Counted from the first letter of the stretch, positions 8,328 through 42,190 are shown. The stretch: DNA of 64,000 nt from an uncultured Gammaproteobacteria bacterium (GCA_964406795.1 CAYOTA010000007.1:5898-69897), one strand, 5' to 3'. A program made the numbers and translations. The notes: generated from the sequence alone by a model not told the origin.

Positions 8328-8354
8328 TAGCACTCAATGTGATAGAGTGATAAC
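8328..8354 (+). promoter_or_regulatory. CIRCE operator (HrcA binding site) overlapping the hsp20 promoter
   Basis: TTAGCACTC-aatgtgata-GAGTGATAA against the consensus TTAGCACTC-N9-GAGTGCTAA: left arm perfect, right arm one mismatch. A TTGACA -35 hexamer lies at 8320-8325. Confidence 0.75.
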
Positions 8355-13313: not shown

Positions 13314-13351
13314 GTGCTTTATTGAAATGTTAAATATGGTATTATACTAGT

Positions 13352-15051: not shown

Positions 15052-15059
15052 TGTATTTA

Positions 15060-16118: not shown

Positions 16119-19100
16119 ATTCGTTCCAAGATTTGATTTCTAAGTCAGTTAATTTATACTCCGTAAGAGCCTTAACATACAAATCCGCGTTTTTTCTATT
16201 TGTGATAAGTCTGATATTGTGATCAATGGCCGCTCTTCTCATAATGTATCCGTCATCAATATCACGTCGTAACTTTGAGTCAACAATGTTTATTGCAAGA
16301 TCTACTTTTCCACGGGCAAAGTAATCAAGAACATTAGGGTTTTTCTTTTCATGTATCTTGTAAAGCCGTTTGGCCGCAATACCATGAAATTTTAAAAATC
16401 TTGCAGTTTTTTCAGTTGCATAAATTGGAACATTTAGTGTGTTTAATAGTAGTGCGGAATCCAAAAATCTAATTTTATTGTCATCAGTACCCAGTGAAAT
16501 AAATATTCCTTTTTTTGGAATAACACCCTCAACTGACAGTTCAGCTTTTAGAAATGCTTCTGCCAGTGTTTTCCCAAACGCAGCTGCTTCTCCGGTAGAC
16601 GCCATCTCTACTCGCAGTAGTGGGTCTGCACCTTCAAGTCGGGAGAATGAAAATTGCGGAACTTTTACTAAATACGAATTAGGATATTCTATTTTTTTGA
16701 CAACCCCTTTTTTGAAAAATGAGTCCACTATGATATGCGCAAGGTTAACTCCAGTCGCTTTAGAGATGAAAGGAAATGTTCTGGATGCGCGCAAATTTGC
16801 CTCAATAACATGCACCTGTCCTTCACGGGCTAAGAACTGAATATTGATAGGACCCGTAATTTGCAGTTCTTTTACAATTTTTTCGGCAATTGAAATAATT
16901 TCTTTTTCATAGTGAATATACAGTTGGTGAGGCGGATAAGAAATGGATGCGTCCCCTGAATGTACTCCTGCATTTTCTATGTGCTGGGAAATAGCATATG
17001 ACAAAAGTGTTCCTTCTTGGGCTACTCCATCCAATTCTATTTCGCGTGCATGCTCCACAAATTTACTAACGGTAATAGGATATTCATTGCTGAGAATGGT
17101 TGCCTTTTTAACAAATATTTCCAAATCATACTGGTTATAGCACACACTCATAGCATCCCCTGACAAAACATATGATGGTCGTATTAAGACAGGGTACCCA
17201 ACTTTTTTAGAGAACGAAATAGCATCTTGGAGATGTTTAAATTCTCTCCATTCAGGCTGGGAAATAGATAATGTGTCAAGTAGTTTTGAAAATGTATTTC
17301 TGTCTTCAGCCCGATCAATATTTTTAGGTGATGTTCCTAATATAGGAACTTTATATAGATCAAGTTTTTTAGATAAATTATTAGGTGTTTGTCCTCCAAC
17401 TGATACAACAACTCCAAATGATTTTTCAAAATCATAAATATCCAAAACGCGTTCGAGTGTTAACTCTTCAAAGTAAAGCCGTTCTGACATATCGTAATCA
17501 GTTGATACTGTTTCAGGATTACAGTTAATAATAATTGATTTCTTTTTATGCTTCTTAAGCGCATGTGCTGTGTTAACACATGTCCAGTCAAACTCAACAG
17601 AGGAGCCAATTCTATATGGTCCGGATCCTAACACAATTACACCGTCCTGTAAAAGTGGCCGCACATCATTATGATGTGCGTGATAGGTAGTGTATAAATA
17701 GTTTGTTTTTGCAGGAAACTCTCCTGCCAGTGTATCTATTTGTAAAATTGAAGGAGTAACTTCATTCTTAATTCTTAATTCTCTAACTTGTGACTCTGAC
17801 ATATTAACTAATGTTCCAATTCGCGCGTCAGCTATCCCTAATTTTTTATACGAAAGTAAAGACTCGCGGTCCAGTTTTTTATTTATTTGAAGTTTTTTTT
17901 CAGCGAGCACTATATTTTCTATAGCATATAAAAACCATGGATCAATTCCGGTAACTTTATTAATTTCAGAAATGGAACTTCCTGTTTTAAGCGCTTCAGC
18001 AATAGCAAAAACACGTTTTGGGGTGGGAACTTTTAAGAAATGCGCTATATTTTGTTTTACATTTAAGCCTTTTTGTTTGGGAATTGAATTATCAGACACT
18101 CCATTATTTTGCGTTCCTAGCATGCGGATTGCTTTTTGAAGTGCTTCCTCAAAACTCCTTCCAATACTCATTACTTCCCCCACAGACTTCATAGATGATC
18201 CTAATTTTTCCTCCACTCCTTTAAATTTTTCCAAATCCCATCTGGGAATTTTAACAACTAAATAATCAAGCGCGGGTTCAAATGCTGATTGGGTTACAAG
18301 TGTAACCTGATTTTTAATTTCCGTAAGCGCTTTGCCAAGTGCTAACTTGGCTGCAACATATGCCAATGGATATCCAGTCGCTTTAGAGGCAAGAGCTGAC
18401 GACCTTGAAAGTCTTGGGTTCATTTCAATTACTTCATATTCTAGCGGTGGATTGTCACCTTCTGTCTTTTTAGGTTTTACCTGCCCGCCGGTCAATTCAG
18501 CTTGCTGGTGTTGCGGGCGGGGATTGAGCGCAAATTGCACATTACATTCCCCAATGATATTAAGACTTCTGACAATTTTTATAGAAATGTCACGTAAATA
18601 TTGATATTCGTAATTAGTGAGAGTTTGGGACGGTGCAACTACAATAGACTCTCCGGTGTGAATTCCTAACGGATCCATATTCTCCATATTGCATACAGTT
18701 ATACAATTATCAAACGAGTCCCGAACAACCTCATATTCAATTTCTTTCCAGTGATGAAGATATTGTTCTACTAACACTTGCGGTGAGAAAGAAAGTGCTG
18801 CCTCAACACGTTCCTCAAATTCTTTTTCGGTATAACACACGCCTGACTTTTGCCCGCCCAGCGCAAATCCAGCTCGTACCATAACCGGAAGTCCTAATTT
18901 TTTCATGACTCTTTTGGCAGCTGCCATATTTCTTGCAGCGTGTGAAGTTGGGGTTTTTACGTGAATTTTTTTAAGGTGATTTGCAAACATTTGCCTGTCT
19001 TCCGCTATAATAACGCTTTCCACAGAAGTTCCAAGTACTGTTACGCCGTACTTTTGAAAAATCTTATTTTTATATAAATTCATCCCAGCATTAAGTGCTG

Positions 19101-19371
19101 TTTGTCCTCCAAATGAGAGGCTTATAGCATCCGGTTTTTCTTTTTTGATAATTTCTTCTATAAAGTATTCGTTGACAGGCAAGAAATATACCTTGTGTGC
19201 CATAAATTCAGAAGTTTGAATAGTTGCTATATTTGGATTGAGTAAAATTACCTCAATTCCCTCTTCTTTAAATGCTTTTATTGCTTGGGATCCGGAATAA
19301 TCAAATTCTCCAGCTTGTCCAATTTTTAACGCACCGGATCCTAACAGTAATACTTTTTTTATTTTTTTCAT
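16111..19371 (-). CDS. carB: Carbamoyl-phosphate synthase large subunit
   Basis: 1086 aa with duplicated ATP-grasp halves and an MGS-like C-terminus; unmistakable CarB. Confidence 0.95.
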   Translation of the reverse strand: MKKIKKVLLLGSGALKIGQAGEFDYSGSQAIKAFKEEGIEVILLNPNIATIQTSEFMAHKVYFLPVNEYFIEEIIKKEKPDAISLSFGGQTALNAGMNLYKNKIFQKYGVTVLGTSVESVIIAEDRQMFANHLKKIHVKTPTSHAARNMAAAKRVMKKLGLPVMVRAGFALGGQKSGVCYTEKEFEERVEAALSFSPQVLVEQYLHHWKEIEYEVVRDSFDNCITVCNMENMDPLGIHTGESIVVAPSQTLTNYEYQYLRDISIKIVRSLNIIGECNVQFALNPRPQHQQAELTGGQVKPKKTEGDNPPLEYEVIEMNPRLSRSSALASKATGYPLAYVAAKLALGKALTEIKNQVTLVTQSAFEPALDYLVVKIPRWDLEKFKGVEEKLGSSMKSVGEVMSIGRSFEEALQKAIRMLGTQNNGVSDNSIPKQKGLNVKQNIAHFLKVPTPKRVFAIAEALKTGSSISEINKVTGIDPWFLYAIENIVLAEKKLQINKKLDRESLLSYKKLGIADARIGTLVNMSESQVRELRIKNEVTPSILQIDTLAGEFPAKTNYLYTTYHAHHNDVRPLLQDGVIVLGSGPYRIGSSVEFDWTCVNTAHALKKHKKKSIIINCNPETVSTDYDMSERLYFEELTLERVLDIYDFEKSFGVVVSVGGQTPNNLSKKLDLYKVPILGTSPKNIDRAEDRNTFSKLLDTLSISQPEWREFKHLQDAISFSKKVGYPVLIRPSYVLSGDAMSVCYNQYDLEIFVKKATILSNEYPITVSKFVEHAREIELDGVAQEGTLLSYAISQHIENAGVHSGDASISYPPHQLYIHYEKEIISIAEKIVKELQITGPINIQFLAREGQVHVIEANLRASRTFPFISKATGVNLAHIIVDSFFKKGVVKKIEYPNSYLVKVPQFSFSRLEGADPLLRVEMASTGEAAAFGKTLAEAFLKAELSVEGVIPKKGIFISLGTDDNKIRFLDSALLLNTLNVPIYATEKTARFLKFHGIAAKRLYKIHEKKNPNVLDYFARGKVDLAINIVDSKLRRDIDDGYIMRRAAIDHNIRLITNRKNADLYVKALTEYKLTDLEIKSWNEYV

Positions 19372-20417
19372 TTTTTGTGTGCTTGAATCATATCCAAGAA
19401 TGTATCAAATAACCACTCTGTGTCATGCGGTCCCGGATAACTTTCAGGATGAAACTGTACTGACATAAAAGGAAGCGTTTTATGTCTTATCCCTTCATTT
19501 GTGTTGTCATTTGCATTAATAAACCATTCTGTAAATCCAGGCGGAATTTTTCCTACTGCAAATCCATGATTTTGAGTAGTTATAAAACATCGTTTTGTTC
19601 CAACCTGAATACAAGGTTGATTTTGGCTTCTATGTCCAAACTTTAATTTATACGTGTCTCCCCCGGCAGCTAATGCAAGTAATTGGTTTCCCAAGCAAAT
19701 CCCAAAAGTAGGTATTTTTAAATCTAGGACTTTTTTTATTATCTCAATAGTTTTGGCGGCCATTTTAGGATCCCCAGGACCATTTGAAATCATAACACCA
19801 TCCGGTTTTATTCCGTTTGCTAAAAAATCATAATCCCATGGGACTGTTGTAACAGTTGTATCTCGCTTTAATAAACTTCTTTCAATATTGCGCTTTGCCC
19901 CACAATCAATTAAAACAATTTTCTTTTTCCCTTTTCCTTTTGTTTGTGGGGTTGTGTTTGATACTTGCGCTACTAAATTTTCTAAATTTGGATCGTATTG
20001 CTTGACGTCCTTTCCAATAATAATTTTGCCTAACATAGTACCATGTTCACGTAATTTTTGGGCGATAAACCTAGTGTCAGATATTTCTAATGCCGGAATC
20101 CCTTCTTCTTTGAGCCAGGAAGACAAGCTCATATTTCCGTGCGGATGAGAGTATTTGTCCACATAGTTGCACACAATAATTCCTTTTACGTGAATTTTGC
20201 TGCTTTCAAAAAACTTTTTATCAAAGATTCCATAATTACCTATGAGAGGGTAGGTGAAAACTAAAATCTGTCCTGCATAAGAAGGGTCTGTCATACTCTC
20301 AGGATACCCTACCATACCGGTTGCAAATACAATTTCGCCGGATGTAGAAATATCTTTCCCAAAAGAAATTCCCTCCATTACTGTTCCGTCTTCAAAGAAT
20401 AATTTTCCTTTTGTCAT
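19368..20417 (-). CDS. carA: Carbamoyl-phosphate synthase small (glutaminase) subunit
   Basis: CarA N-domain plus class-I glutamine amidotransferase (GICLGNQLL catalytic Cys, HPE near the C-terminus). Confidence 0.95.
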   Translation of the reverse strand: MTKGKLFFEDGTVMEGISFGKDISTSGEIVFATGMVGYPESMTDPSYAGQILVFTYPLIGNYGIFDKKFFESSKIHVKGIIVCNYVDKYSHPHGNMSLSSWLKEEGIPALEISDTRFIAQKLREHGTMLGKIIIGKDVKQYDPNLENLVAQVSNTTPQTKGKGKKKIVLIDCGAKRNIERSLLKRDTTVTTVPWDYDFLANGIKPDGVMISNGPGDPKMAAKTIEIIKKVLDLKIPTFGICLGNQLLALAAGGDTYKLKFGHRSQNQPCIQVGTKRCFITTQNHGFAVGKIPPGFTEWFINANDNTNEGIRHKTLPFMSVQFHPESYPGPHDTEWLFDTFLDMIQAHKK

Positions 20418-21373
20418 GTTGTTTTTCCTAATAAAAGGGCAAGTAGCGCCATTCTAACATATACACCATTTTTCATTTGTGTTGAAAGATATAATGCATT
20501 AGGATTTTTATCAACGCGGGTATCTATTTCTCCAACTCTCGGCAACGGATGCATAAAATATGTATCTTTTGAAGCGTATGTCTTGATTAATTCAGGTGTT
20601 AGGACAAGAGAATGTTTGAGTTTTTCGTACTCTTTCTCATCTGTGAATCGTTCTTTTTGAACCCGTGTCCAATACCAGAAGTCAGCACTTTTTGGAATGT
20701 CTTTCGTGCTAGTAATCTCAATAAGCTTAATTGATTTTGAAAATGCTTCCAGTTCTACTTTTTTTATTTTTAGTTTTTCAGGAGATAATAAATACAATGT
20801 GTTATTGCTAAAAAGAGAAAGCCCGCGGATTAGGGATTTAACTGTTCTTCCATTTAGCATGTCGCCAGCTAATACTCCGGTTAAGTTATCCAATTTTTTA
20901 GAGCGCTCATAAATTGTATATAAATCTAATAACGTTTGAGTGGGGTGTTCATTTGTGCCGTCTCCAGCGTTAATTATTGGAATTGTGGCGGCGTCTGCTG
21001 CAATTTTTGCACTTCCTGCTTCTGGGTGTCTTATCACAATAAGATCGGAATAGCTTTCTAAAACATGAATCGTGTCTTCAAGACTTTCTCCCTTTGCAAC
21101 TGATGTATTTGAAATTCCGTGGATGGGTAAAATTCCCGCACCTAATTGTTGAGCTGCTGATGCAAAAGATGAAAAAGTTCTAGTGGATGGTTCGTAAAAT
21201 AAAAGGGATATTATTTTTCCTGAAAGAATATCAGAAGGTTTGCCAAATTCTCGCAAAGGTTTTAATTTTTTTGCAGTTTCTAAAACTTTCTTAATATCAG
21301 CTGACGAAAACTGGTCAAGGGAGAGTATGTGGGAGTTAATAAATTTTCCTGCAATTTTATTAGTTGTTACCAT
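20414..21373 (-). CDS. pyrB: Aspartate carbamoyltransferase catalytic subunit
   Basis: STRTFSSF (STRTR) and HPLP motifs. Likely start at MVTTNK (21373), giving about 319 aa; the ORF-track start at 21481 adds 36 non-conserved residues. Confidence 0.85.
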   Translation of the reverse strand: MVTTNKIAGKFINSHILSLDQFSSADIKKVLETAKKLKPLREFGKPSDILSGKIISLLFYEPSTRTFSSFASAAQQLGAGILPIHGISNTSVAKGESLEDTIHVLESYSDLIVIRHPEAGSAKIAADAATIPIINAGDGTNEHPTQTLLDLYTIYERSKKLDNLTGVLAGDMLNGRTVKSLIRGLSLFSNNTLYLLSPEKLKIKKVELEAFSKSIKLIEITSTKDIPKSADFWYWTRVQKERFTDEKEYEKLKHSLVLTPELIKTYASKDTYFMHPLPRVGEIDTRVDKNPNALYLSTQMKNGVYVRMALLALLLGKTT

Positions 21374-21485
21374 TATTTCTCTAAAGTATGCGTTTCTTGA
21401 ATCCAACTTTATCAAAAATAGGGTATTAATACAAGGTTTATTACATTGTTCAACAAATCTTATTGAATAACCTCTTGACAAGAAT

Positions 21486-21512
21486 TAGCAGTCATGTTAT
21501 ATTATTGCTAAG
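21486..21512 (+). promoter_or_regulatory. Degenerate CIRCE-like inverted repeat upstream of hrcA
   Basis: TTAGCAGTC-atgttatat-TATTGCTAA has 3 mismatches to the CIRCE consensus but the correct N9 spacing. Confidence 0.4.
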
Positions 21513-26742: not shown

Positions 26743-29157
26743 ATGAAAAAATTTCTGCCCGTATTTATAAGTCTTTGTGCTTTTTTATTCCTTATTTTTT
26801 TAGTAAGTTCTCCTACCTTTGCATCAAATGGTGCGCCTACATTGGCACCCACAATCGCAGCTGGCCAGAAATTGGGTACTGATGCAACAGATAGATTTGT
26901 GCCTGATTCCAATGTTACATTCGTTGGGAAAACTGCAAGTAGAGCAGGTGATTTTTTAGACCTAACACTCAGAAATTATGACTGGGCATGTGTGACAAGA
27001 AATCCAGTAGATAATACCTGTGACAATAGAAACAATCCGCTAGCTGTATTTTGGGCCACTATCAGAAATATTATTTACGCAATTTTGGTAATCGTAGTGT
27101 TGGCCGCAGCCTTTATTATGATTGCAACTCGTGGAAGAAGTTTGACTATCACGCGCTTCATTCCCCGCTTTATACTCATAATTCTTTTAATAACATTTTC
27201 ATTTTCACTTGTTCAGTTTTTGTATCAAATTGCAGATATTATTCAGGGGTTTTTCCTGCGTACCGGAGAGGGGGCTGCTAGGCATATTATCTCAACTCGC
27301 GACCTCATATTTATAGGGTTTGATTACAAAAACTTTACAGGACTCAGGCTCCCGGGTCCGGAAAATGATGAGTCCGCATTTATGACACTTCTTTTAGTAC
27401 GACTTACCGCTGTTACTTATTACGTTATGACAGGAATTTTGATTGTGAGAAAAATTATCTTGTGGTTTTTTATAGTCTTGTCCCCAGTCTTTCCTCTTTT
27501 ATTGTTCTTTAAGATTATTAGAAATACAGCCAAAATTTGGATTGGTGAATTTTTCAGATGGCTGTTGTATGGTCCACTTTTTGCAATTTTCTTAAACGGT
27601 TTAGTTGTTTTATGGAGTAGCGGAAGTGAGACGAATCCTGGTATTCCGCTCGGGTTTACTATGGTAGGCGTAGGGGATCCAGGAAAAGTTATTTATCCAA
27701 CAGCCGTTAATATTTTGATTGGTGGACCTGGTCAAGCATTAGGTTTTAATAATTCAGTAAATACCCAAGACACATTTGCCTTGTATGTTGTAGCTCTCAT
27801 CATGTTATGGGTTGTTATGATTTTGCCGTTTATTCTGCTTAAGATTTTTCTTGACTTTGCCTCAGGATTGTCCATCCAAAACAACAGAGCATTTAAGCAG
27901 ATGTGGAATAAAGTTTCTCCCGTAACGCCTCCTCCGCCGTCTGGCCCACCACCTCCGGCAGGAGCTGGTTTGGCTATGAAAATGCCTTTTGGAGCCTCAA
28001 AAACTATTACTATGCCGGCTAGTACCTATACCAGTACAGGCTTAGCACGTGAGTTGCCGAGATCTGAAAATATTTCAAGATCAGTTCCAACGATTGCAAG
28101 AATTCCTGAAAATATGCGTATCTTACAGCAGGCAAACATAACAATTCCAAGACTAACGGATATTGCGCGTTTCGAAAAAACCATCGAAACACGTGACACA
28201 TCCAAAATTTCTGAAGTAACGCGCATGACAACTTCTCTGCAAAGAATTTCAAACCCTAGCTCAGTTTCCTCATCTGTTGAAAGAAGCAGGTATCAGCAGG
28301 TTAGAACAGAATTGGTGAAAGAACGCCAGAAGGGTAATGTGCTGGCTACATCTATTTTGAATGCAGCAAATGTTACAAACAACACAAATAATAACACTTC
28401 AAGTTCAAGAGTGGGTGGTTTGCATACTCAGTCAATTCAAAACAATTCATCCACAATAAATAATTCTCAAAGCTCAACTCTTAATAATTCACAGAGTTCT
28501 ACTGTTAATAACAGCCAGGTTTCAACAAGTATGTCAACGGGAGTTAAAAATGCATCAACAAATGTAGTAGGAGGCCAAGTTACAAGCGACGGAGTGCCAA
28601 AGACTGCGATGACAACTCCTTCCGCTGTTCATTTACCCGCAGTAAACAAAGTTCAGCAGGTAAGTATTGAGGATTATGAAGAGGTCAAGAAAATGTGGCT
28701 TGAAACATATGAAACATCCAGTCCTCCAACTGACTTAAATGGTAAAAAATCAACCCGGGATGAATGGATTACCAATGATATGAACAATATTAATCAAGCG
28801 GTGTCACTTTTGAATTCAGTGGATCCAATTAGAGTTAATGAGGGTATGAATATGGTCTCAAATATCCTTCCGTTTTTGATGGTTGGAGGATTTTCAAAAA
28901 CAGAGGTTGTTGCCTATCTTAAAGCAAAACTTGAAGCAGGAAAACAAGTAATGTCTTCCGGAACTAATAAAAAAGATGAGGATGACACGCTTCTTGACCG
29001 TAACACTCACACAACACAAGCAAGTAAGTATATGGAAGCACAACAAGCAGCTGCAATTCCAACTGATACGCCAGGCGCCCCAAGAGAAATGAGTGATGAA
29101 ATGTATAAAACTCCTACTGCTATTCAAAATAAGACTGAAGAATCAATTAAAAAATAG
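26743..29157 (+). CDS. VirB6/TrbL (TcpH-like) polytopic membrane protein with long low-complexity C-terminal tail
   Basis: Signal peptide and a Cys-containing exodomain, then 5-6 TM helices with VirB6-like spacing. The following roughly 400-aa tail is N/S/T/Q-rich with a PPPPSGPPPPAG segment. The architecture resembles Gram-positive conjugation TcpH. Confidence 0.45.
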   Translation: MKKFLPVFISLCAFLFLIFLVSSPTFASNGAPTLAPTIAAGQKLGTDATDRFVPDSNVTFVGKTASRAGDFLDLTLRNYDWACVTRNPVDNTCDNRNNPLAVFWATIRNIIYAILVIVVLAAAFIMIATRGRSLTITRFIPRFILIILLITFSFSLVQFLYQIADIIQGFFLRTGEGAARHIISTRDLIFIGFDYKNFTGLRLPGPENDESAFMTLLLVRLTAVTYYVMTGILIVRKIILWFFIVLSPVFPLLLFFKIIRNTAKIWIGEFFRWLLYGPLFAIFLNGLVVLWSSGSETNPGIPLGFTMVGVGDPGKVIYPTAVNILIGGPGQALGFNNSVNTQDTFALYVVALIMLWVVMILPFILLKIFLDFASGLSIQNNRAFKQMWNKVSPVTPPPPSGPPPPAGAGLAMKMPFGASKTITMPASTYTSTGLARELPRSENISRSVPTIARIPENMRILQQANITIPRLTDIARFEKTIETRDTSKISEVTRMTTSLQRISNPSSVSSSVERSRYQQVRTELVKERQKGNVLATSILNAANVTNNTNNNTSSSRVGGLHTQSIQNNSSTINNSQSSTLNNSQSSTVNNSQVSTSMSTGVKNASTNVVGGQVTSDGVPKTAMTTPSAVHLPAVNKVQQVSIEDYEEVKKMWLETYETSSPPTDLNGKKSTRDEWITNDMNNINQAVSLLNSVDPIRVNEGMNMVSNILPFLMVGGFSKTEVVAYLKAKLEAGKQVMSSGTNKKDEDDTLLDRNTHTTQASKYMEAQQAAAIPTDTPGAPREMSDEMYKTPTAIQNKTEESIKK

Positions 29158-29209: not shown

Positions 29210-31927
29210 ATGTTCGGAAATTTATTTACTCCAAAAAAAGACGATGTGTTAAATGGTTTACCTCAAGATGCGCCTGTAGTGTCTACTGAATCACAAGAGA
29301 CTATGAGTATGGGGCAGCAGTCGGGTATATCCAGCTCAGATCAGGACATGAATGCCGGAGGAATAGATCCCCAAAAAAGGCAAAGTATGTCAGCTCTTTC
29401 CAAACTTGATCCTCGATCTTTGCAGGTTTTGCACCATGCTGAGCAAGAAACTAAACGCGTTCAAGCCTCTCAAATTGGCTCTGAACAGCTGCTTTTAGGA
29501 ATGTTTTATGACGGTGAGATTTTTCAACTTCTAGAAAGTTTCCAAGTGGATGTGGCAAAGCTGACACAGCAAATTCAAAGCAAAGAAAAACCTGGCGGAT
29601 TTACCGGACAGCCCACCATGAGTACTGCCGTAATTCAGATATTTGATGAGGGTTACAAAAGTGCAAAAAAAAGAGGCGCTTCCTTTGTCTCCCCGGAAGA
29701 TATATTGGTTGGATTCTTTGCGGATCCCGCAACAACCTCATTTTTAAAAGCATTTGGAATTGAAAAAGGAAAACTGGATGATAAACTTTCCAAAACAACT
29801 TCTTTTGCCCAATCATCTAGAAAATCAGTGTTGGAAAAATATGGAATTGATCTGACTCAGGAGGCAAAAGATGGAAAGCTTGACCCAGTTGTAGGCCGAG
29901 ACAAAGAAACAGAGCGTTTAATTCACATTTTATTAAGACGCACAAAAAATAACCCTATTATTATAGGTGAAGCTGGAGTTGGAAAAACGGCTATTGTTGA
30001 GGCACTTGCACAAAAAATAGTAGAAGGATCAGTTCCTCATGATCTACTAGACAAAAGAATTATTCAGCTTGAATTGTCATCCCTTGTGGCAGGTGCGTCT
30101 CACAGAGGTGAGTTTGAGGAGCGACTTCAGGATGTAATTCATGAAACCCAGGCTTCAAATGGGAAAATTATTTTGTTTATAGACGAGATACACACGCTCA
30201 TTGGCGCTGGAGACACGGGCGGAGCACTTGACGCGTCCAATATCATAAAGCCATATTTGGCCCGTGGACAGCTGCAACTTATCGGAACTACCACTACGGC
30301 CGAATACAGAAAGCATTTTGAAAAAGATAAGGCATTTGAAAGACGTTTCCAGTCAGTGTTAGTAGATGAACCTGAAGAAGAAGTAGCGCAGCAAATGTTG
30401 GACGTACTGCGTCCTAAATATGAAAAATTTCACTCTGTAGTTATAACCCCAGAAGCAATTGAGGCAGCAGTTCATTTGTCAAAAAAATATATTGGTGAGC
30501 GCTATCTTCCGGATAAGGGAGTTGACCTATTGGATGAGGCTGCCGCTGAGGTAAAACTTCAGCACACTGAGGGCAAGCGTGCAGATAATAATGTGGTGAA
30601 AGCTGACATTGAAAAAGTGGTTGCAGCTTGGACCGGAATTCCTATAACCAGACTTACTGAAGATGAAAGTCAAAAACTAATTCATTTGGAAGACACAATT
30701 CACAAGCGCTTTATAGATCAAGAAGAAGCTGTAGGATCAGTATCTGAGGCTGTAAGACGCGGAAGAATTGGACTCTCGGCCGCCAACAGACCCATTGCGT
30801 CATTTATTTTCCTAGGCCCTACGGGTGTAGGTAAAACAGAGTTAGCTAAAACGCTTGCTGAAATTTTATTTGGCCGCGATGACTTACTGGTCAGACTTGA
30901 TATGTCTGAATATATGGAAAAGCATGAGGTAGCAAAGCTTATAGGTGCACCTCCTGGGTATGTAGGATATGAGGAGGGTGGACAGTTAACGGAGGCGGTA
31001 CGTGCAAAACCCTATTCTATTGTGTTGCTGGATGAAATTGAAAAAGCTCATCCTGATGTGTTTAATATTCTTTTGCAGCTTTTGGAAGATGGTCGCTTAA
31101 CTGACAATAAAGGAAACACAATTTCATTTAAGAACACTATCATAATTGCGACTTCAAACATTGGAAGCTCAGTTATTCAGCAGACATTATTAACACAAGC
31201 ATCCAACGGAACGCAAGTAGTATCCCCGGAAGAAGAAGCTAAAAAGTATTCTGAACTGTCAGCAACCCTTATGGAAGAGTTGAGAAAATTCTTTAAACCG
31301 GAGCTGTTAAATCGTTTTGATGACATAGTTATGTTTAAACCCTTACGAATGCGCGATATGGCCCAAATTGCAAAATTGGGAATAGGAAAAACACAAAAAT
31401 TACTGGAAGAGCAAAAAATCCATTTGGAAATAACAGAGAAAGCAATTGGAATATTGGCAAAAGAAGGATACGATCCAGTTTATGGTGCGCGACCTTTAAG
31501 ACGCCTTGTCCAGACCGCAATTGAAAATCCCATTGCAGTTCTATTAATCAACAAAACATTTGTGCCGGGGGATATTATTAAAATCGATTATGATGATGCA
31601 AAGTCTGAGTTTACCTTTACAAAAGGTGTACCTGCGGTTGCAGGGCCTCAACCATCTATATCTGAGACAGCACAAAATCCAGTTGTTCAGCCTCAATACG
31701 TGAATCAAGCACCTCAAGCTTCAGGTGTGTCAGCTAATCCATCAGGTATTGCCCAACCGCAACAGACTCAGCCCATGAATGCTATGCCTCAGCAGCCAGT
31801 AGATGATCCAAATGCAGGAATTTTGTCACAGATTGCGCAGGAACACACAGTAACACCTATACCATCAGCACCAAATGGTACTGCTCCTCAGCCTGGAGTT
31901 GGCGGAACCATGATGCAACCCGCATAA
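29210..31927 (+). CDS. clpC: ClpC-like class-I AAA+ unfoldase (Clp_N, D1, short linker, D2) with disordered N- and Q/P-rich C-terminal extensions
   Basis: Two Clp_N repeats; D1 Walker [10 protein letters not shown] and Walker B ILFIDEIH; D2 [12 protein letters not shown] and LLDEIEKAH; GAR sensor-2. There is no long ClpB M-domain. No [LIV]G[FL] tripeptide occurs at the ClpP-loop position ([22 protein letters not shown]). Confidence 0.85.
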
Positions 31928-35464: not shown

Positions 35465-36331
35465 ATGGCAGCAAAAAAAGATTTTTATGAGACATTGGGT
35501 GTTTCAAAATCCTCAACTCCAGAAGAATTAAAACGAGCCTACAGAAAATTAGCGCTGGAGTATCATCCTGATAAAAATAAAACAAAAGAGGCTGAAGAGA
35601 AGTTTAAAGAAATAAACCAGGCATATGAAGTATTATCTGATCCTCAAAAGCGTACCACATATGATCAAGTTGGTCATGCTGGGTTTGAGGGAGGAGCAGG
35701 GGCTGGCGGCCCATTTGGCGGCCAGGGTGGGCAATATGGTCCATTTACTTACTCGTATTCGAATGGTGGAAACGCGTCCGGATTTGATTTTGGCCAGGGT
35801 GGTGCTGATCCATTTGAAATATTTGAGCAATTCTTTGGGGGTGGATTTGCCAAAAGAAAACCAAGATACAGTATTGCGATAGATTTTCTTGAAGCAGTCA
35901 AAGGGGTTACAAAAAATGTTTCAATTGACGGAAAACCACAAAACATAAAAATTCCGGCAGGAGTGGATAACGGCTCAAGGATACAATTTCCTGAGTATGA
36001 GGTTGTTGTGTCAGTAAGATCCAATAGTAAGTTTCACCGCGAGGGAAATGACATTTTAACTGAAAAGCAAATTTCATTGTCTCTCGCAATTTTAGGGGGT
36101 ACAGTAGATGTTGAGACTGTGCATGATACGGTAAAACTTAAAGTATCAGCTGGTACTCAGCCTGATTCGCTCATTCGTATCAAAGGAAAAGGCGTACCGC
36201 GCGTAAGAGGGGGTGGAAGCGGGGATCATTTTGTGCGAATTAAAGTTGTGATTCCTGCAAAAATTTCAGGAAGACAAAAAGAACTAATTGAAGAATTTGA
36301 TAAAGAAAGCAAAAAACGCACCTGGTTTTAA
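35465..36331 (+). CDS. dnaJ: J-domain co-chaperone, class B (DnaJ/CbpA-like, no zinc-finger domain)
   Basis: J-domain with HPD (YHPDKNK), a G/F-rich region and CTD I/II. The CxxCxGxG repeats are absent. Confidence 0.8.
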
Positions 36332-36378: not shown

Positions 36379-36705
36379 ATGGGTATTCTGCTCTATCCCT
36401 TTGTAGTGCTTTTATTTTGGTATAAAGATGGTCTCTTGTCTATCTTTTCATTTTTCGGATCACTTAATGATTATTCTCTAAGGCTATTCTCACTTCCCGG
36501 TCTTTTTGCCACATACTTCAGGCCGCTTAAAAACGAATACAGAAAAAACCTTATTTTGTTTTCAATTCTATTTGGAATGGTTGTTAAAACATTTCTTATC
36601 ATAGGTTCATTGACTATTTTTTCCATAATTTTACTGTGTGAACTAATCGTCATTAGCATATATTTAATTTTCCCGCTTTTGCCAATTATTTTATTTTTAG
36701 GATGA
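36379..36705 (+). CDS. Small 3-TM membrane protein, translationally coupled to the downstream membrane ClpC paralog
   Basis: 108 aa and hydrophobic, with an ATGA stop/start overlap with 36702. Confidence 0.4.
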   Translation: MGILLYPFVVLLFWYKDGLLSIFSFFGSLNDYSLRLFSLPGLFATYFRPLKNEYRKNLILFSILFGMVVKTFLIIGSLTIFSIILLCELIVISIYLIFPLLPIILFLG

Positions 36706-39071
36706 AACTATTTAATTATTACGACTTTTATAAGTTGTACTCTCTGGTACCCATGAGGGTTTTGCGTGTTTTAATTTTGTTGGGATTAGCTAGTCTTATA
36801 ATTCTTAACTATGAAGAGTTTTTATTGTTTAGACTTTTTCTCATAATTTATACACTCTTTCTTATTAACGAGATATTTATTTACTTTAAATTAAACAAGT
36901 CTTTCCCCCGATTTTTAGTTATAGATAATAAAGCAAATTTTGAAGGCTCCACTCTTTTTAAAACAAAGAAAATTATGTCAGGAAGGAATCTTTTCTCCAA
37001 TCTTCATGACTTATTCAAAGAAATAGACGTAGCATTTCTTATAGAAAGAATTGGCGGAACCATGCAAAGTTATGAGCAGGTAGATCTAAAAATCTTATAT
37101 GAAAAATCTTTAGAAGTGGCTCGGCGATCTGGGGGAAAATACATAACATCCGCCGATGTTGCGGTCGCATATTTACTTATCACGGAAGAAAAAACAAAAT
37201 ATTTGTTTCAGCAAGAAATAACAGAAAACGATTTATATGAAATACTTATGTGGGCACGTGGGAGGTATGGTTTAGATCGAGCTAAATCAAGCACATTGCA
37301 CTTCACCGGTTATGGGGTTTTTGACTTCTTTATTTATGGATGGGATACATTAATTAAAGAATATTCGTATGACATTTCTTTAAGTGTAATCAATAAACAT
37401 GAAACGCCAATTGTTGGCCGGGAAAAAGAGTTTCATGCAATGGTATCTATATTATCTAAAAATACAGCAAATAATGTTATTTTACTTGGGGAGCCAGGTG
37501 TTGGAAGATCGGCGTTAGTGCGCAAATTTGCACTTGAAGCATATAGAGACTCTCACTTTGTGCTGGCACACACAAAAGTATATGAGTTATTGGCAGACAG
37601 ACTACTTTCAGGAGTGCAAAACACGGGGGACCTAGAGTCTCGGTTATCTCTCTTGTTAGCTGAACTGGAGCATTCAGGGAATATTATTTTGTTTATTCAA
37701 AATATAGAAAATATATTTGGTGGCGGTGGGTTTAACTTTGATATGTCAGGTATTCTGTTTCAATACTTAAAAAGTGGGCGGGTGCAGATAATTGGAACAA
37801 CAACTCAATCTTTCTATAAAACCGTGCTTGAGAAAAAACCCAGCATATCTAATTTATTTGAAAAAATAAGAATTGAGGAGCCTGACCGGGCAAATATTTT
37901 CCAGATGATTGCTTCACATGTGGATATTATTGAGCATGAGTATCAACTGTCTGTCTCATATAAAGCAATTCATGAATCCGTTGAGTTATCTTCTACATAC
38001 ATGCCTGATTTATATCTTCCGGGAAAGGCAATAAATCTTTTATCTGATGTTGCGGCCCAAGCCAGAATGAATGGACAAAAAAATGTCTCCAAAGATGACG
38101 TAACGCGTGTTATTCAGGAGAAGACAAATATAATCCTTGAAAAGCCTACGGAAGAAGAGAAGAAAACGCTATTGTCGCTTGAGGCAGATTTACATAAAAG
38201 AGTTATTGGGCAAAATGAAGCAGTTGATGCTGTTGCAAAAGCCATCAGACGACTGCGTTCAGGATTTTCTCAGCATAACAGGCCCATTTCAGTATTTTTG
38301 TTTTTAGGCCCAACAGGGGTTGGAAAAACTGAGACAGCAAAAGCACTGGCTGCATTATATTTTGGCGATGAAAATTCCATGATCAGGCTTGATATGTCTG
38401 AGTATCAAACTCAAAATGAAGTAGAGCGTTTACTCGGTGGAATTCCTGGAGGGGAAGAACTTGCTAACTCATTGCCGGAAGCAGTAAGACAGCATCCATT
38501 TTCACTCCTTCTTTTAGATGAGTTTGAAAAAGCACATCCTCGTATTTTGGATATTTTTCTTCAAATTTTTGAAGATGGACGTCTTACTGATAACCAGGGT
38601 AAAACAGTTTCATTTAAAAACACAATTATTATTGCAACTTCCAACGCTGGATCAGAACTAATAAGACAAATGGTTAAAATGGGCCTAAACGGAGATAATA
38701 TGAAAAATGACTTGGTTGAGGCATTGCTTTCAAATGGCCAATTTAAACCAGAATTACTTAATAGATTTGATGACGTTATCGTGTTTAAACCGCTTACTGT
38801 TGAAGAAGCTTCTCAAATAGCCGGTCTATTGCTCTCACATTCACTAAAAACATTAGAAGATGATCAAATATATCTTACATTTGATGCAAGTGTTATCGAA
38901 AAGATAGTAAGGGAGTCTTATGACCAGGAGGCAGGAGCACGTAATATGAGAAGGTATATAGGTTCTACAATCGAGGATTTTATATCTAAACTTATTCTTG
39001 AGAATAAACTCGCTCGAGGAACACACGCAGTAATTGGTACTGATGTAAACGGAAATTATATACTACAATAA
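36702..39071 (+). CDS. Membrane-anchored ClpC paralog with degenerate (pseudo-ATPase) D1 and intact D2
   Basis: Two N-terminal TM helices and a Clp_N-like repeat. The D1 Walker A is GEPGVGRSA (K to R, T to S), the Walker B is ILFIQNIEN (DE to QN), and the Arg-finger region is altered. D2 is intact ([26 protein letters not shown]). An MGL tripeptide sits at the ClpP-loop position (KMGLNGDN aligned to ClpC KHLGFNVQD). Confidence 0.75.
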   Translation: MKLFNYYDFYKLYSLVPMRVLRVLILLGLASLIILNYEEFLLFRLFLIIYTLFLINEIFIYFKLNKSFPRFLVIDNKANFEGSTLFKTKKIMSGRNLFSNLHDLFKEIDVAFLIERIGGTMQSYEQVDLKILYEKSLEVARRSGGKYITSADVAVAYLLITEEKTKYLFQQEITENDLYEILMWARGRYGLDRAKSSTLHFTGYGVFDFFIYGWDTLIKEYSYDISLSVINKHETPIVGREKEFHAMVSILSKNTANNVILLGEPGVGRSALVRKFALEAYRDSHFVLAHTKVYELLADRLLSGVQNTGDLESRLSLLLAELEHSGNIILFIQNIENIFGGGGFNFDMSGILFQYLKSGRVQIIGTTTQSFYKTVLEKKPSISNLFEKIRIEEPDRANIFQMIASHVDIIEHEYQLSVSYKAIHESVELSSTYMPDLYLPGKAINLLSDVAAQARMNGQKNVSKDDVTRVIQEKTNIILEKPTEEEKKTLLSLEADLHKRVIGQNEAVDAVAKAIRRLRSGFSQHNRPISVFLFLGPTGVGKTETAKALAALYFGDENSMIRLDMSEYQTQNEVERLLGGIPGGEELANSLPEAVRQHPFSLLLLDEFEKAHPRILDIFLQIFEDGRLTDNQGKTVSFKNTIIIATSNAGSELIRQMVKMGLNGDNMKNDLVEALLSNGQFKPELLNRFDDVIVFKPLTVEEASQIAGLLLSHSLKTLEDDQIYLTFDASVIEKIVRESYDQEAGARNMRRYIGSTIEDFISKLILENKLARGTHAVIGTDVNGNYILQ

Positions 39072-39075
39072 ATAT

Positions 39076-40077
39076 ATGGAAAAAATTGCGGTTTTTGAAA
39101 TAGAAGAGTGGGAAAAGGAATTTATAAAAAATGCGCTTCCTCAAAAAGAGTTTATATTTTTTGATCGTCCGTTGCGACTTGAGGATGTAGGTGCGATAAA
39201 AGACATTAGTGGGCTTGTTGTATTTATTTATTCTCAAGTTACAAAAGAAGTTATAGATGCGCTTCCAAATCTAAAATTTGTAACAACCATGTCCACAGGT
39301 TTTGACCACATTGACCTAGAAACATGTAGGCAAAGACAAATAACCGTATGTAATGTTGCTGGGTACGGAGAGATTACTGTTGCAGAGCACACGTTTGCGC
39401 TTCTTCTGGCTATTTCCAGACGACTTATTGAGTCATATACCAGGGTTAAAGATGGATATTTTTCACCAGAAAATCTAACGGGTTTTGATTTGAATGGAAA
39501 AACATTAGGAGTAGTTGGCGTAGGAAGTATAGGTGCACACGTAATTAAAATTGCGCATGGTTTTGGGATGAATGTAATAGCATACAAAAGAACACCTGAT
39601 CCCGAGTTGGAAAAAAAACTAGATTTTAAAATTGTAGATCTTGATACGCTTTATAACACATCAGATGTGGTGTCATTGCATGTTCCCTATACAAAGGAAA
39701 ATCATCATATGATTAATGCAGAAGCAGTTTCAAAAATGAAAAAAGGTGTAGTTATTCTTAATACATCTCGCGGTCCGTTAATTGATACAACCGCTTTATT
39801 AAAATTTCTTGAAGAAGGAAAAATTGGTGGAATTGGCTTAGATGTTTGTGAGAACGAACCTATGTTACGAGAGGAAAAGCAGATATTATCAAAAGAGTTT
39901 AATAAGGAAGACTTATTGTGTTTGCTTGAAGAAAAGATGCTTTTAAATTATAAAAACGTGATCGTTACTCCTCATAACGCATTTAATAGCCGCGAAGCGC
40001 TGCAGAAAATTTTAACAACCACTATTGAAAACATTAACACATGTTTAAAAGGAAGTCCTCAAAATGTAGTTTCTTAG
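39076..40077 (+). CDS. D-isomer-specific 2-hydroxyacid dehydrogenase (D-lactate/phosphoglycerate dehydrogenase family)
   Basis: GVVGVGSIGAHV NAD-binding Rossmann motif and a catalytic R...E...H arrangement (TSRGPLID, TPHNAF). Confidence 0.8.
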   Translation: MEKIAVFEIEEWEKEFIKNALPQKEFIFFDRPLRLEDVGAIKDISGLVVFIYSQVTKEVIDALPNLKFVTTMSTGFDHIDLETCRQRQITVCNVAGYGEITVAEHTFALLLAISRRLIESYTRVKDGYFSPENLTGFDLNGKTLGVVGVGSIGAHVIKIAHGFGMNVIAYKRTPDPELEKKLDFKIVDLDTLYNTSDVVSLHVPYTKENHHMINAEAVSKMKKGVVILNTSRGPLIDTTALLKFLEEGKIGGIGLDVCENEPMLREEKQILSKEFNKEDLLCLLEEKMLLNYKNVIVTPHNAFNSREALQKILTTTIENINTCLKGSPQNVVS

Positions 40078-40421
40078 TTTTTGCCGGGAGTTATTAAAAG
40101 ACTTAAGAACCAGTTCACAATTGACACAATTATACTAAAGAATAACGCTGATAAAAATCCGTTTACAAAAAATCCAGGGACAATAACTGACGCAAGTAAA
40201 ATTATCAAAGCGTTTAATACAAAGATAAATAGGCCTAACGTTATAATTGTGATAGGTAATGTCAACAAAACAAGAATTGGTTTTAATATGGTGTTTAGTA
40301 TCCCAAGAACTATAGCCAGAACAAAGACAGTTATCGCACTTTCCACAACAATTCCTGGAACAATGTATGCCGCTACAAAAATTGATACACAACTTACTAA
40401 AAGATATATAAGTAATCTCAT
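40074..40421 (-). CDS. 4-TM membrane protein, phage-holin-family-IV/YvlD-like
   Basis: 115 aa with four hydrophobic helices resembling the Phage_holin_4_2 superfamily. Last gene of the sortase operon. Confidence 0.45.
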   Translation of the reverse strand: MRLLIYLLVSCVSIFVAAYIVPGIVVESAITVFVLAIVLGILNTILKPILVLLTLPITIITLGLFIFVLNALIILLASVIVPGFFVNGFLSALFFSIIVSIVNWFLSLLITPGKN

Positions 40422-40439
40422 GAGTTAAGGATAATATTT

Positions 40440-41036
40440 TTAGCGCGGCTTGTCAACCTTGGGCACAGCAAATACTAAAAGACGCTGTAGTGACGTACCA
40501 ATGGGAGTACATGTTTGCAAAATAAGTTGGGTTTTTTGAGTGTTTTGAAGATAAGAAACTTCATTTGGCCACACTGTTTTTTTATCACTCACTATATACT
40601 TGTATTTTTTACCATTCTTAATAAGCATAATTTCATCGTTTTTTTGAAGCTCACCTAATCTATAGAATGCACTATTTTGTCTTGTGATTCTCCACGGTAA
40701 GTCGTATGAATGAGCAAAAAGGAATATAGTACCACTGGTGGATGCAATAGTTGCTGTTCCTTTTGCATGAGCTACTCCTTTTTTTAACTCTTTTTGATAC
40801 TCTGCTTCATTCCACGGATTTACATTTTCTATAATGGGCGCTTGAGCCTGAATTTTTGGTATTTCTATAAATACACCTTTTTTGGGTGAAGCTTTGATAG
40901 CAGGTGGATTAACATACACAAACAATAGTGGATAATAAATATAAAGCAATACAAGAATGGGAATTAACATCAAAGTATTTCCGATATTTTTTATGATATT
41001 TAGTTTTTGTTTTTTTGTGAGCTTGAGATTTGTCAT
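40440..41036 (-). CDS. Sortase (transpeptidase), class-E-like
   Basis: N-terminal TM anchor, a His loop (GVAHAKGTA), and a LILQTCTP catalytic-Cys TLxTC motif. It lies directly downstream of an LPXTG protein. Confidence 0.7.
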   Translation of the reverse strand: MTNLKLTKKQKLNIIKNIGNTLMLIPILVLLYIYYPLLFVYVNPPAIKASPKKGVFIEIPKIQAQAPIIENVNPWNEAEYQKELKKGVAHAKGTATIASTSGTIFLFAHSYDLPWRITRQNSAFYRLGELQKNDEIMLIKNGKKYKYIVSDKKTVWPNEVSYLQNTQKTQLILQTCTPIGTSLQRLLVFAVPKVDKPR

Positions 41037-41086
41037 GTGGGTATTATGCGTGAGAAGAGCGTGAAAGTCAAACGTTTACAAATACT

Positions 41087-42190
41087 TTATTTTCCAGGAG
41101 CAATCCCAGAGCGATAGCGCAGATACCAACCTGAGAAGAATGTTATTAGACTTGCCAAAGTAATGAAATACAAAAGATATGATCCGGTTGCCGGAAGAAC
41201 ATCTCCACCACTAGCAGCACTGGACGCTGATGCTCCCCCTACAGATCCGCTTGAAGGATGGCAATTTTCAATACATGGCTTAGGGGACGGAGCAGGAGTT
41301 ATGGTAGGTGTTGGAGACGGGTTTTCTGGTTTTTCACAATCACAATCAGCATATAAAAAATTACTGTTTGCTGAATTATTTATTTCAATAAGGGACAATA
41401 TTCCGCCTGTTTTAATATAGACGTCACCCGTATTTCCTTTTGCTGTATTTTTCCCTGTGTTGAGCAATGACATAATATTATTTGTTATAAATGAATTGTT
41501 TGAGGATGTAGAAGCTAATGTCTTAGGGTCGGAGTAAAACATTTTATTAATTGAATCAGCTGCATTATTATGAATCGCAAGCACAACTGCTTTTTGTCCA
41601 AATGACAAGTGCTGGACAGAAGAGTTAATATTTGAGTTATCTAGTTGAATACTTGAAGTAATACTTCCTGTATTTATCACCACATGTCCATTGTTGTAAC
41701 TTGCAGTATTACTTCCGGTATTTGCTTTGACGGTAATATTATTAGTAATTACAGTGTTGTTGTTTTGGTTGGAATTAACTGTCTGAGAAGTTTGAGAGTT
41801 AATAATGTTATTAGATTCGGCACCATTGTTTTCAATTTTTATAGTTGTTTCTGAATTTGTGCAGCAAGGGTTGTTAGTAGCTACGTTCGCATTTATATTT
41901 TCATTTGAAATGTTTACTTCAGATGATGTGTCACCGGTTTTGATAGCCGTATCCCCTTGGTTACTATTTGAAGTATTGTCGCCAGTATTTGCATTAGAGT
42001 CTACATTATTTTGAATCTCTGAGCTATTGTCTTGGTGTACGGCAGTGTTTTGGTTTGATTCAACACTTACTTCATTTTGGGAGTTCGCCCCGTTTCCTGA
42101 TATTACAATTTCTTCAGCGTATGCTTGTGTGAAAATCTGCAGTTGTAGTGCTACGCAAAGAGTGAGTGATACAAAAATCTTTTTTGACAT
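41087..42190 (-). CDS. LPXTG cell-wall-anchored surface protein with Asn/Thr-rich repeats
   Basis: Signal peptide, ISGNGANSxNEV...TGDN...IKTGD repeat modules with CC/CDC motifs, a PSPTPT linker, and a C-terminal LPATG plus hydrophobic stretch plus RYRSG sorting signal. Confidence 0.7.
   Translation of the reverse strand: MSKKIFVSLTLCVALQLQIFTQAYAEEIVISGNGANSQNEVSVESNQNTAVHQDNSSEIQNNVDSNANTGDNTSNSNQGDTAIKTGDTSSEVNISNENINANVATNNPCCTNSETTIKIENNGAESNNIINSQTSQTVNSNQNNNTVITNNITVKANTGSNTASYNNGHVVINTGSITSSIQLDNSNINSSVQHLSFGQKAVVLAIHNNAADSINKMFYSDPKTLASTSSNNSFITNNIMSLLNTGKNTAKGNTGDVYIKTGGILSLIEINNSANSNFLYADCDCEKPENPSPTPTITPAPSPKPCIENCHPSSGSVGGASASSAASGGDVLPATGSYLLYFITLASLITFFSGWYLRYRSGIAPGK

Follow-up and report, generated by a model that had tools for sequence, protein, structure and literature searches.

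Hsp100/Clp proteins are the textbook soluble threading machines, and their defining elements are ATP hydrolysis in two rings and pore loops that carry tyrosines. A 64,000-nucleotide stretch of DNA recorded for an uncultured Gammaproteobacteria bacterium (GCA_964406795.1, CAYOTA010000007.1:5898-69897; hereafter the window) encodes an ATPase of this class in which several of these elements appear to be missing, directly downstream of a gene for a small predicted membrane protein, here called the miniprotein (Table 1). A first-pass annotation had read the pair as a membrane-anchored ClpC paralog with a catalytically dead first AAA+ module (D1), coupled in translation to a miniprotein with three transmembrane (TM) helices and perhaps feeding ClpP. 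The locus raises the question of how an Hsp100 ring functions when its canonical grip is unavailable: in a whole clade, D1 catalysis and both aromatic pore residues appear to have been lost, a membrane anchor and an obligate small partner gained, and the engine of the second module (D2) perfectly conserved. The present analysis identifies this TM-Hsp100 and its miniprotein as a distinct Hsp100 subfamily, with a partner protein, that is specific to the Candidate Phyla Radiation (CPR). As a naturally occurring "D1-dead" system, it lends itself to telling assembly functions apart from motor functions.

Architecture of the ATPase and its two rings

The ATPase has the class-I Clp/Hsp100 double AAA+ fold, with tandem AAA+ modules and both the AAA_2 and the D2-small domains. 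In the 789-residue protein, Pfam detects AAA_2 (PF07724, E 1.8e-48), ClpB_D2-small (PF10431, E 6.5e-16), and AAA_lid_9 (PF17871, E 4.4e-10). The AlphaFold2 model, calculated from a 54-sequence family alignment with a mean predicted local distance difference test score (pLDDT) of 84.7, consists of an N-domain, D1, and D2, and Foldseek matches its D1+D2 part to ClpC, ClpB, and ClpA chains with TM-scores of 0.80–0.85. The earlier statement that the protein can be aligned residue by residue with a soluble Hsp100 paralog encoded in the same window (29210–31927) was borne out (36% identity over 703 residues), and the same is true of Staphylococcus aureus ClpC (PDB 6em8); the motif calls given below for D1 and D2 are based on alignment to these two proteins. 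The best NCBIfam model, ClpB TIGR03346, scores 467 bits against a cut-off of 1232, in two stretches that leave the M-domain region unmatched, while the ClpA models (TIGR02639, 445 bits against 993; PRK11034, 318 against 1350) and the ClpV model (397 against 885) are likewise far from their cut-offs. No M-domain insertion is seen in the D1 lid (residues 396–458) in either the model or the alignment, and the D1–D2 linker is about 30 residues long.

The two N-terminal TM helices proposed for the ATPase are supported by both hydropathy and modeling, since AlphaFold2 helices at residues 16–35 and 40–64 (pLDDT ~90) coincide with the hydropathy peaks. TM2 ends in a conserved L(I/V)NE(I/L)FI motif with an invariant Glu57, and Pro69 is also invariant. 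This two-helix hairpin is predicted to hold the ATPase at the cytoplasmic face of the membrane, which would make the D1 face, where substrates enter, membrane-proximal. A cleavable signal peptide in place of an anchor is unlikely, considering that there are two hydrophobic helices, that a conserved cytoplasmic leader of 17 residues precedes TM1, and that the ATP-dependent domains must remain in the cytoplasm. The N-domain that follows has no Pfam Clp_N match, and the TIGR02639 alignment begins only at residue 122; hhalign against canonical N-domains returns a single repeat with 68% probability (E 4.9e-5). The Clp_N-like repeat described earlier is therefore only moderately supported by the profile comparison and finds no counterpart in Pfam. 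Ahead of D1 lies an aromatic motif that reads G(V/A)FD(F/S)(F/L)(V/I)YGW across the family, and a search of genome contigs with this pattern retrieved the TM-Hsp100 family specifically.

The extent of the family was established at two depths. A search of 5.8 billion proteins yielded a close family of about 65 clusters, the basis of the census, with 41–100% identity, about 99% query coverage, and lengths of 770–798 residues. It is set apart by a sharp drop in score: its weakest near-full-length members still reach 563–633 bits, and a 600-residue fragment 486, whereas ordinary Hsp100s attain 434 at most. All named close members are Candidatus Levybacteria (Levyibacteriota; Microgenomates group, Patescibacteria). 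The wider search was an exhaustive HMMER run with query residues 1–460 against 1.84 billion 50%-identity representatives; 66 of the best 150 matches possess an N-terminal TM segment, their alignment beginning at about residue 5. The names among these distant members are Levybacteria, Berkelbacteria, "Parcubacteria group", "Patescibacteria group", and bacterium ADurb.Bin212. In a neighbor-joining tree computed from the D1+D2 columns only, 56 of the 58 full-length TM-type sequences fall into one clade, which also includes one N-terminally truncated sequence. By this tree, the TM-type Hsp100s appear to be a family of at least 56 clusters at 50% identity, forming one clade across the CPR. A pattern scan of 185,579 species-representative genomes with family-specific D1 motifs gave 33 family loci, and all of those with informative names belong to Levybacteria or Patescibacteria.

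Some of the record titles are at odds with this distribution. Those of L006, L008–L011, L014–L020, L022–L028, L030, L031, and L034 read "uncultured Gammaproteobacteria bacterium" on loci with a Levybacteria-type module and synteny, and on these metagenome-assembled genomes the title looks like a placeholder or a mislabel. One 2.8-kb contig with a distant member is labeled Nitrososphaerota and is probably mis-binned.

The changes that had been read in D1 were largely confirmed. D1 is a real AAA+ fold, as judged from the Foldseek scores given above, and these together with the alignment to ClpC rule out that a misaligned domain of another kind had been taken for it. The Walker A lysine is replaced by arginine (K269R in GEPGVGRSA) and the Walker B DE by QN (ILFIQNIEN), exactly as stated. 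The loss of the Arg finger also holds, but not the segment EKIRIE that was named as its counterpart: ALERRFQ pairs with ISNLFEK, so that RR becomes NL, and the former register was off by about four residues.

The census shows which of these changes characterize the family. At the D1 Walker B position, QN is found in 50 of the 65 close members, PN in 9, and EN in 5, Asn replacing the Glu in 62, and arginine never occurs at the Arg-finger positions. Among the 66 distant TM-type members, the DE survives in 6 and the RR is absent from 61. The Walker A lysine, on the other hand, is retained by 56 of the 65 close and 55 of the 66 distant members, including the 78%-identical relative. The replacement of this lysine can therefore be dismissed as a defining trait, and in the window's protein it is a recent, lineage-specific minority change; the hallmark of the family is the loss of the D1 Walker B and the D1 Arg fingers. 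Four distant TM-type proteins (P0242, P0243, P0269, and P0288) have kept the D1 Walker B DE while the Arg fingers and the pore tyrosines are already gone, and these may represent stages on the way to a degenerate D1.

Despite the lost catalysis, D1 is clearly under purifying selection. The mean fraction of the majority residue is 0.63 in D1, where 34 of 163 columns reach 90% conservation or more, compared with 0.73 and 83 of 205 columns in D2, and family signatures are present in both D1 (FIQNIENIFGGGGF) and sensor-2 (GARN). The suggestion that D1 serves as a scaffold is strengthened to the extent that non-hydrolyzing motifs combined with strong conservation fit an assembly ring. It is probable, given the retained P-loop lysine, that D1 still binds nucleotide in most members of the family.

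In D2, the retention of Walker A, Walker B, and the GAR of sensor-2 was verified, and sensor-1 and the Arg finger are intact as well. All five motifs are invariant over the 65 close members, and the Walker B DE is intact in 57 of 57 distant TM-type members. The aromatic pore-loop residue, in contrast to these catalytic motifs, is missing from both rings of the ATPase: KYR has become QNT in D1, and GYVG has lost its YV in D2. The D1 aromatic is absent from 65 of 65 close and 64 of 66 distant TM-type members, while the YV of D2 is deleted in all 65 close members and GYVG is absent from 57 of 57 distant ones. The conventional label "unfoldase", under which the protein had been introduced, is not supported by these counts, and without the pore tyrosines the engagement of a client must differ from canonical hand-over-hand threading.

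The missing tyrosines also bear on the proposal that the protein is a membrane-tethered unfoldase that docks ClpP through an MGL tripeptide in D2 and feeds it with membrane-proximal substrates. It is correct that MGL lines up with the AGF docking tripeptide of S. aureus ClpC and that the soluble paralog has no corresponding tripeptide; ClpC chains, moreover, match best in both sequence and structure. However, while 32 of 44 canonical relatives carry a hydrophobic-Gly-hydrophobic tripeptide in this segment, only 2 of the 65 family members do so, the residues at this position being SGI in the 78%-identical relative and EGK or QKT in others. In the AlphaFold2 model, residues 660–662 make a tight turn that joins helices 651–660 and 664–677, with no protruding loop, and the tyrosines that would thread a chain into ClpP are absent. 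A tblastn search with E. coli ClpP found no match in the 64-kb window or in loci L001–L003 (22 kb each), which is weak evidence. On the basis of the conservation and the structural model, docking through MGL was rejected; the tripeptide in the window's protein appears to be a coincidence, with no conserved ClpP-docking tripeptide in the family, and a ClpP-feeding machine is disfavored as very unlikely.

The same losses could be taken as signs of decay, the ATPase gene being a functionless duplicate of the soluble Hsp100 gene that has shed several catalytic and pore residues and, in the window's lineage, the D1 P-loop lysine in addition. Such a gene would not be expected to persist as a full-length open reading frame (ORF) in more than 100 sequence clusters over several CPR phyla, with many invariant columns, a perfectly conserved D2, and a conserved partner gene, in genomes that are small and streamlined. 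This explanation is disfavored too and we hold it to be extremely improbable. On the contrary, the retention of the module in several phyla with streamlined genomes makes it likely that it is physiologically important.

The miniprotein and the gene junction

The arrangement behind the proposed coupling of the two genes was confirmed: both ORFs are present, and they overlap by four nucleotides at an ATGA (reading ...AGGATGAAA). Among 36 Levybacteria-type loci, the overlap is likewise 4 nucleotides in 20 and 8–32 nucleotides in 8, while 7 have a gap of 0–9 nucleotides. The ATG at 36702 can be taken as the true start of the ATPase because the 17-residue leader that it opens is conserved across the family. 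The public record of the ATPase on this contig (P0001, 772 residues) begins at Met18, 17 codons late, and the overlap with the miniprotein gene is lost as a consequence. In L001, L002, L038, and L042, the miniprotein gene is left uncalled at its position. The late start and the uncalled gene together hide the pairing and the overlap in public annotation.

The miniprotein gene is found directly upstream of the ATPase gene, on the same strand, in 36 of 36 Levybacteria-type loci. A homolog is also immediately upstream in all five distant loci L038–L042 (hmmsearch E 2e-45 to 5.5e-5), which include Parcubacteria-group and Patescibacteria-group assemblies, bringing the total to 41 of 41. Several clusters of the miniprotein and of the ATPase also agree exactly in the length of their longest contig. 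Since the miniprotein is constant in the distant loci while the other neighbors differ, the miniprotein and the TM-Hsp100 can be regarded as the core of the module.

Homologs of the miniprotein form 87 clusters of about 108–110 residues. It has no match among the Pfam, NCBIfam, PHROG, and PADLOC models, and a Foldseek search of the PDB yielded no match with an E value under 3. The invariant residues are Trp14, Ser38, Pro49, the stretch Lys51-Asn-Glu-Tyr-Arg55, Leu58, Lys70, Glu88, and Pro99. Two of these, Lys70 and Glu88, lie inside hydrophobic helices, and the KNEYR stretch is part of an invariant basic cytoplasmic loop, F(K/R)P(L/W)KNEYR. The AlphaFold2 model (pLDDT 91) has helices at residues 3–36 and 39–44, the KNEYR loop, and then a single 52-residue hydrophobic helix (56–107), so that the three TM helices assigned earlier are not established.

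Possible functions of the complex

By its lack of an M-domain, its ClpP-loop segment, and its equivalog scores, the ATPase is not a ClpC, a ClpB, or a ClpA, and its motifs suggest that it also lacks the general Hsp100 hallmarks of dual-ring catalysis and tyrosine pore loops. It resembles ClpC and ClpA in the succession of N-domain, D1, and D2, in the AAA_2, AAA_lid_9, and ClpB_D2-small domains, in sequence (~29–37% identity), and in structure (TM-score 0.8–0.85), and it shares with ClpA the absence of a long M-domain. It differs from both in having a TM hairpin and an obligate gene for a small membrane partner, and in having neither the D1 Walker B Glu, the D1 Arg fingers, the aromatic pore residues, nor a conserved [LIV]G[FL] loop. 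The short coiled-coil M-domain by which MecA and other adaptors control ClpC is missing along with the conserved docking loop, and in comparison with ClpA the equivalog cut-offs are not reached and there is no conserved IGL loop. ClpB/Hsp104 comes close in being an Hsp100 independent of ClpP (as we infer for the CPR ATPase), in providing the best NCBIfam model, and, in Levybacteria, in the DnaK/DnaJ neighborhood; however, the CPR ATPase is membrane-anchored, with an inactive D1, no pore tyrosines, and no coiled-coil M-domain, the element that docks DnaK.

FtsH offers a parallel for the membrane arrangement, as its two N-terminal TM helices also set a hexameric AAA+ ring under the membrane with the entry face toward the bilayer. 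FtsH nevertheless belongs to another AAA+ clade, has only one ring, and combines an aromatic pore loop with a fused M41 peptidase, whereas the Pfam scan found no peptidase domain in the CPR ATPase and there is almost no extracytoplasmic loop between its TM helices. A division of labor between two rings is known from NSF (D2) and PEX1/PEX6 (D1), where one ring binds ATP without hydrolyzing it for hexamer assembly and the other is the motor. Those proteins belong to the classic AAA clade, are soluble or peripherally recruited, and keep aromatic pore loops in the active ring. ClpI of Actinomycetota has been described as a third class of double-ring Clp unfoldases, whose N-domain varies and of whose sub-classes some have a ClpP motif and others lack it (Jiang and Schmitz 2023; PMC10149685). 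In contrast to the present family, ClpI is soluble and actinobacterial; its ATPase modules and translocation motifs are intact, and it has an M-domain like that of ClpC (PMC10149685). Searches of the accessible literature, also for CPR Clp proteins, turned up ClpI, Torsin, FtsH, and Msp1 but no bacterial Hsp100 described as anchored in the membrane or dead in D1, in keeping with the earlier remark that a pseudo-ATPase D1 on a membrane-tethered Clp protein is undescribed.

The reading that we favor, with a probability of roughly one half, is that of a ClpP-independent, membrane-tethered, CPR-specific Hsp100 complex with a small integral partner, in which D1 is a non-hydrolyzing assembly ring and D2 the sole motor. 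D1 would bind nucleotide without turning it over, and all of the mechanical work would fall to D2. The miniprotein would be a stoichiometric membrane subunit, produced by translational coupling, that packs on the TM hairpin of the ATPase, possibly through intramembrane charges (Lys70 and Glu88 of the miniprotein and Glu57 of the ATPase). Acting without ClpP, the complex would use ATP hydrolysis in D2 to act on membrane-proximal clients, which it would remodel, extract, or release, and in Levybacteria it would work within a DnaK/DnaJ/Hsp100 proteostasis gene cluster.

Several points weigh against this picture. The family is known from sequences and predicted models, and a physical interaction between miniprotein and ATPase is proposed on the basis of gene order and overlap. 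Nucleotide binding by D1 is uncertain in the window's own protein because the P-loop lysine itself is replaced (Arg269). The chaperone neighborhood is lineage-specific, DnaJ and the soluble paralog being absent from L038–L041, and no controlling inverted repeat of chaperone expression (CIRCE) is found before dnaJ or the miniprotein gene in the window. The weakest link is the step of remodeling or extraction, since pore loops free of aromatics in both rings argue against extraction of the threading type.

The clade-wide loss of the aromatics from both rings would be accommodated if the complex drove or gated a membrane channel or translocase, in which a Bcs1-like concerted conformational change moves or gates cargo with no threading. 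Bcs1 provides a precedent, being a TM-anchored AAA protein whose concerted cycle moves its cargo in the folded state (PMC10567702, PMC7994207). In such an assembly, six hairpins and six miniproteins would make a ring of at least about 30 membrane helices with polar residues lining the conduit. Charged invariant residues do occur inside the hydrophobic helices of both proteins; candidates for the lining are Lys70, Asp77 (in most members), and Glu88 on one face of the miniprotein helix, and Asn56-Glu57 of the ATPase. The obligate adjacency of the two genes would fit as well. On the other side, Foldseek found no PDB structure resembling the miniprotein, no conserved cargo or secretion genes stand beside the module in L038–L042, and the anchor is on the D1 side, so that a route from cytoplasm to membrane would oppose the canonical D1-to-D2 direction. 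We consider a channel motor of this kind unlikely. Its more specific form, in which miniproteins and TM hairpins build a hexameric channel that is opened, closed, or driven by the pore-loop-less double ring, an ATP-powered translocase or extractor unique to CPR, strikes us as quite unlikely. If true, it would be a previously unrecognized machine, perhaps important for the episymbiotic, membrane-centered lifestyle of CPR bacteria.

The aromatic-free pore loops and the dedicated small membrane partner have another parallel in Torsin and its cofactors LAP1/LULL1. Torsins are related to the Clp/Hsp100 D2, membrane-associated, and devoid of aromatic pore loops, and they work with a dedicated membrane cofactor (PMC5425593). 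By analogy, the ATPase could be a non-processive switch, moving no polypeptide, whose D2 ATP cycle assembles, disassembles, or regulates a specific membrane partner; the miniprotein itself and a complex of the cell envelope are candidates for this partner. However, Torsins are single-ring, lumenal proteins whose Arg finger is supplied by the cofactor, whereas the CPR ATPase would be cytoplasmic, carries a second, dead ring, and is paired with a small helical protein with no AAA-like fold. Its D2 keeps its own Arg finger and all of the catalytic motifs, so that no activator subunit is required, and a full double-ring Hsp100 with a D2-small domain is more than a switch needs. A Torsin-like role is, in our estimate, also rather unlikely.

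Feature coordinates and genomic neighborhood

The positions of the features discussed here are collected in Table 1.

Table 1. Features of the TM-Hsp100 locus and its surroundings, in window coordinates.
Feature	Position	Strand	Basis or remark
dnaJ, 47 nt upstream of miniprotein gene	35465..36331	+	Pfam
Miniprotein gene	36379..36705	+	108-residue ORF; predicted integral membrane protein
ATGA overlap, ATPase start codon on miniprotein stop codon	36702..36705	+	translational coupling
Hsp100/Clp class-I ATPase gene, membrane-anchored	36702..39071	+	789 residues; Pfam, PDB sequence and fold matches
Cytoplasmic leader, 17 conserved residues (MK..NY..FY+FYN)	36702..36752	+	family N-terminal alignment
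Transmembrane hairpin, TM1 residues 16-35 and TM2 residues 40-64	36747..36893	+	hydropathy, AlphaFold2, family alignment
N-domain, all-helical, residues 80-190, distantly Clp_N-like (one repeat)	36939..37271	+	AlphaFold2, hhalign
Family-specific aromatic motif FTGYGVFDFFIYGW between N-domain and D1	37302..37343	+	W214 invariant; G203, G205, F207, D208 near-invariant
D1 AAA+ module, predicted non-hydrolyzing	37398..38075	+	alignments, AlphaFold2
D1 Walker A GEPGVGRSA	37488-37514	+	K269R
D1 pore loop SGVQNTGDLE	37608-37637	+	KYR to QNT
D1 Walker B ILFIQNIEN	37686-37712	+	DE to QN
D1 Arg-finger site SISNLFEKI	37842-37868	+	RR to NL
D2 AAA+ module, all catalytic motifs present	38172..39068	+	alignments, census
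D2 Walker A	38307-38333	+	intact
D2 pore loop, YV deleted	38430-38480	+	GGIPG--GEELAN
D2 Walker B LLLLDEFEK	38505-38540	+	intact
D2 sensor-1 ATSN	38625-38654	+	intact
MGL tripeptide in D2	38679-38687	+	aligns with ClpC AGF
D2 Arg finger LNRFDD	38748-38774	+	intact; R688 invariant
D2 sensor-2 GAR	38934-38942	+	intact
D-2-hydroxyacid dehydrogenase gene, 4 nt downstream of ATPase gene	39076..40077	+	Pfam; D-isomer-specific
Soluble Hsp100 paralog, internal control	29210..31927	+	905 residues; both rings catalytic, D2 GYVG present

Of the 36 Levybacteria-type loci, 32 have the dehydrogenase gene within a few bases behind the ATPase gene. Among the others, L010, L019, and L036 end inside the ATPase gene, which leaves L013 as the sole locus that extends further and is without it. 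It is absent from L038–L042. No terminator was predicted between dnaJ and the dehydrogenase gene, and the latter is probably co-transcribed with the ATPase gene. On the other side of the pair, dnaJ is frequent and not universal: roughly every second Levybacteria locus has it upstream.

The window further contains a GroEL fragment, Hsp20, HrcA-GrpE-DnaK, a TrbL-like membrane protein, the soluble Hsp100, two secreted peptidases, and DnaJ, and from hrcA through the dehydrogenase every gene is on the plus strand. The block of soluble paralog, peptidase, DnaJ, miniprotein, ATPase, and dehydrogenase recurs in relatives of 44–69% identity. CIRCE-like inverted repeats were located at 8327–8353 and 21485–21511, with 1 and 3 mismatches to TTAGCACTC-N9-GAGTGCTAA and about 0.01 matches expected by chance. 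They stand just upstream of hsp20 (8409) and hrcA (21595), the only genes so preceded, and control of the module by HrcA/CIRCE was therefore rejected.

A role in anti-phage defense of the Dodola type was rejected as well: the PADLOC DolB match of the ATPase (E 5.7e-40) spans only the generic D2, and there is no DolA-like neighbor. Defense models matched nothing in the miniprotein and gave a marginal E1-E2 match in the dehydrogenase (E 0.0071), and the PHROG match of the ATPase is to a generic "ATP-dependent protease".

The soluble paralog has no M-domain (its D1–D2 linker is about 35 residues long) and no ClpP tripeptide, and it ends in a long, low-complexity tail rich in Gln and Pro. In this protein and its orthologs (L001–L008, L018, L020, and L033) the D1 pore tyrosine is replaced by a conserved His (A(S/A)HRGEFE), and the D2 GYVG is kept. 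By the usual criteria, its sequence points to neither a ClpB nor a ClpC. Directly upstream, at 26743–29157, is a gene for a multi-pass membrane protein of 804 residues that weakly matches TrbL/VirB6 (E 7e-4) and has a long tail rich in Ser, Asn, and Thr. This arrangement is conserved in L001–L003, and behind the paralog come secreted peptidases of the S8 or M4/M28 families. The TrbL-like protein, the soluble Hsp100, and the peptidases may be a second conserved unit.

Two other gene groups of the window may be mentioned. A pyrimidine biosynthesis cluster (pyrF, pyrD, a phosphoribosyltransferase, an amidohydrolase/pyrC-like gene, carB, carA, and pyrB) occupies 12492–21481; CPR genomes are commonly without de novo nucleotide synthesis, and the cluster is thus unusual for this group. 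On the minus strand, 40074–42190 encodes a 4-TM holin-family protein (PF04020), a sortase, and a 367-residue surface protein rich in Asn and Ser, whose terminus, with LPATG, a hydrophobic tail, and a basic end, is that of a sortase substrate.

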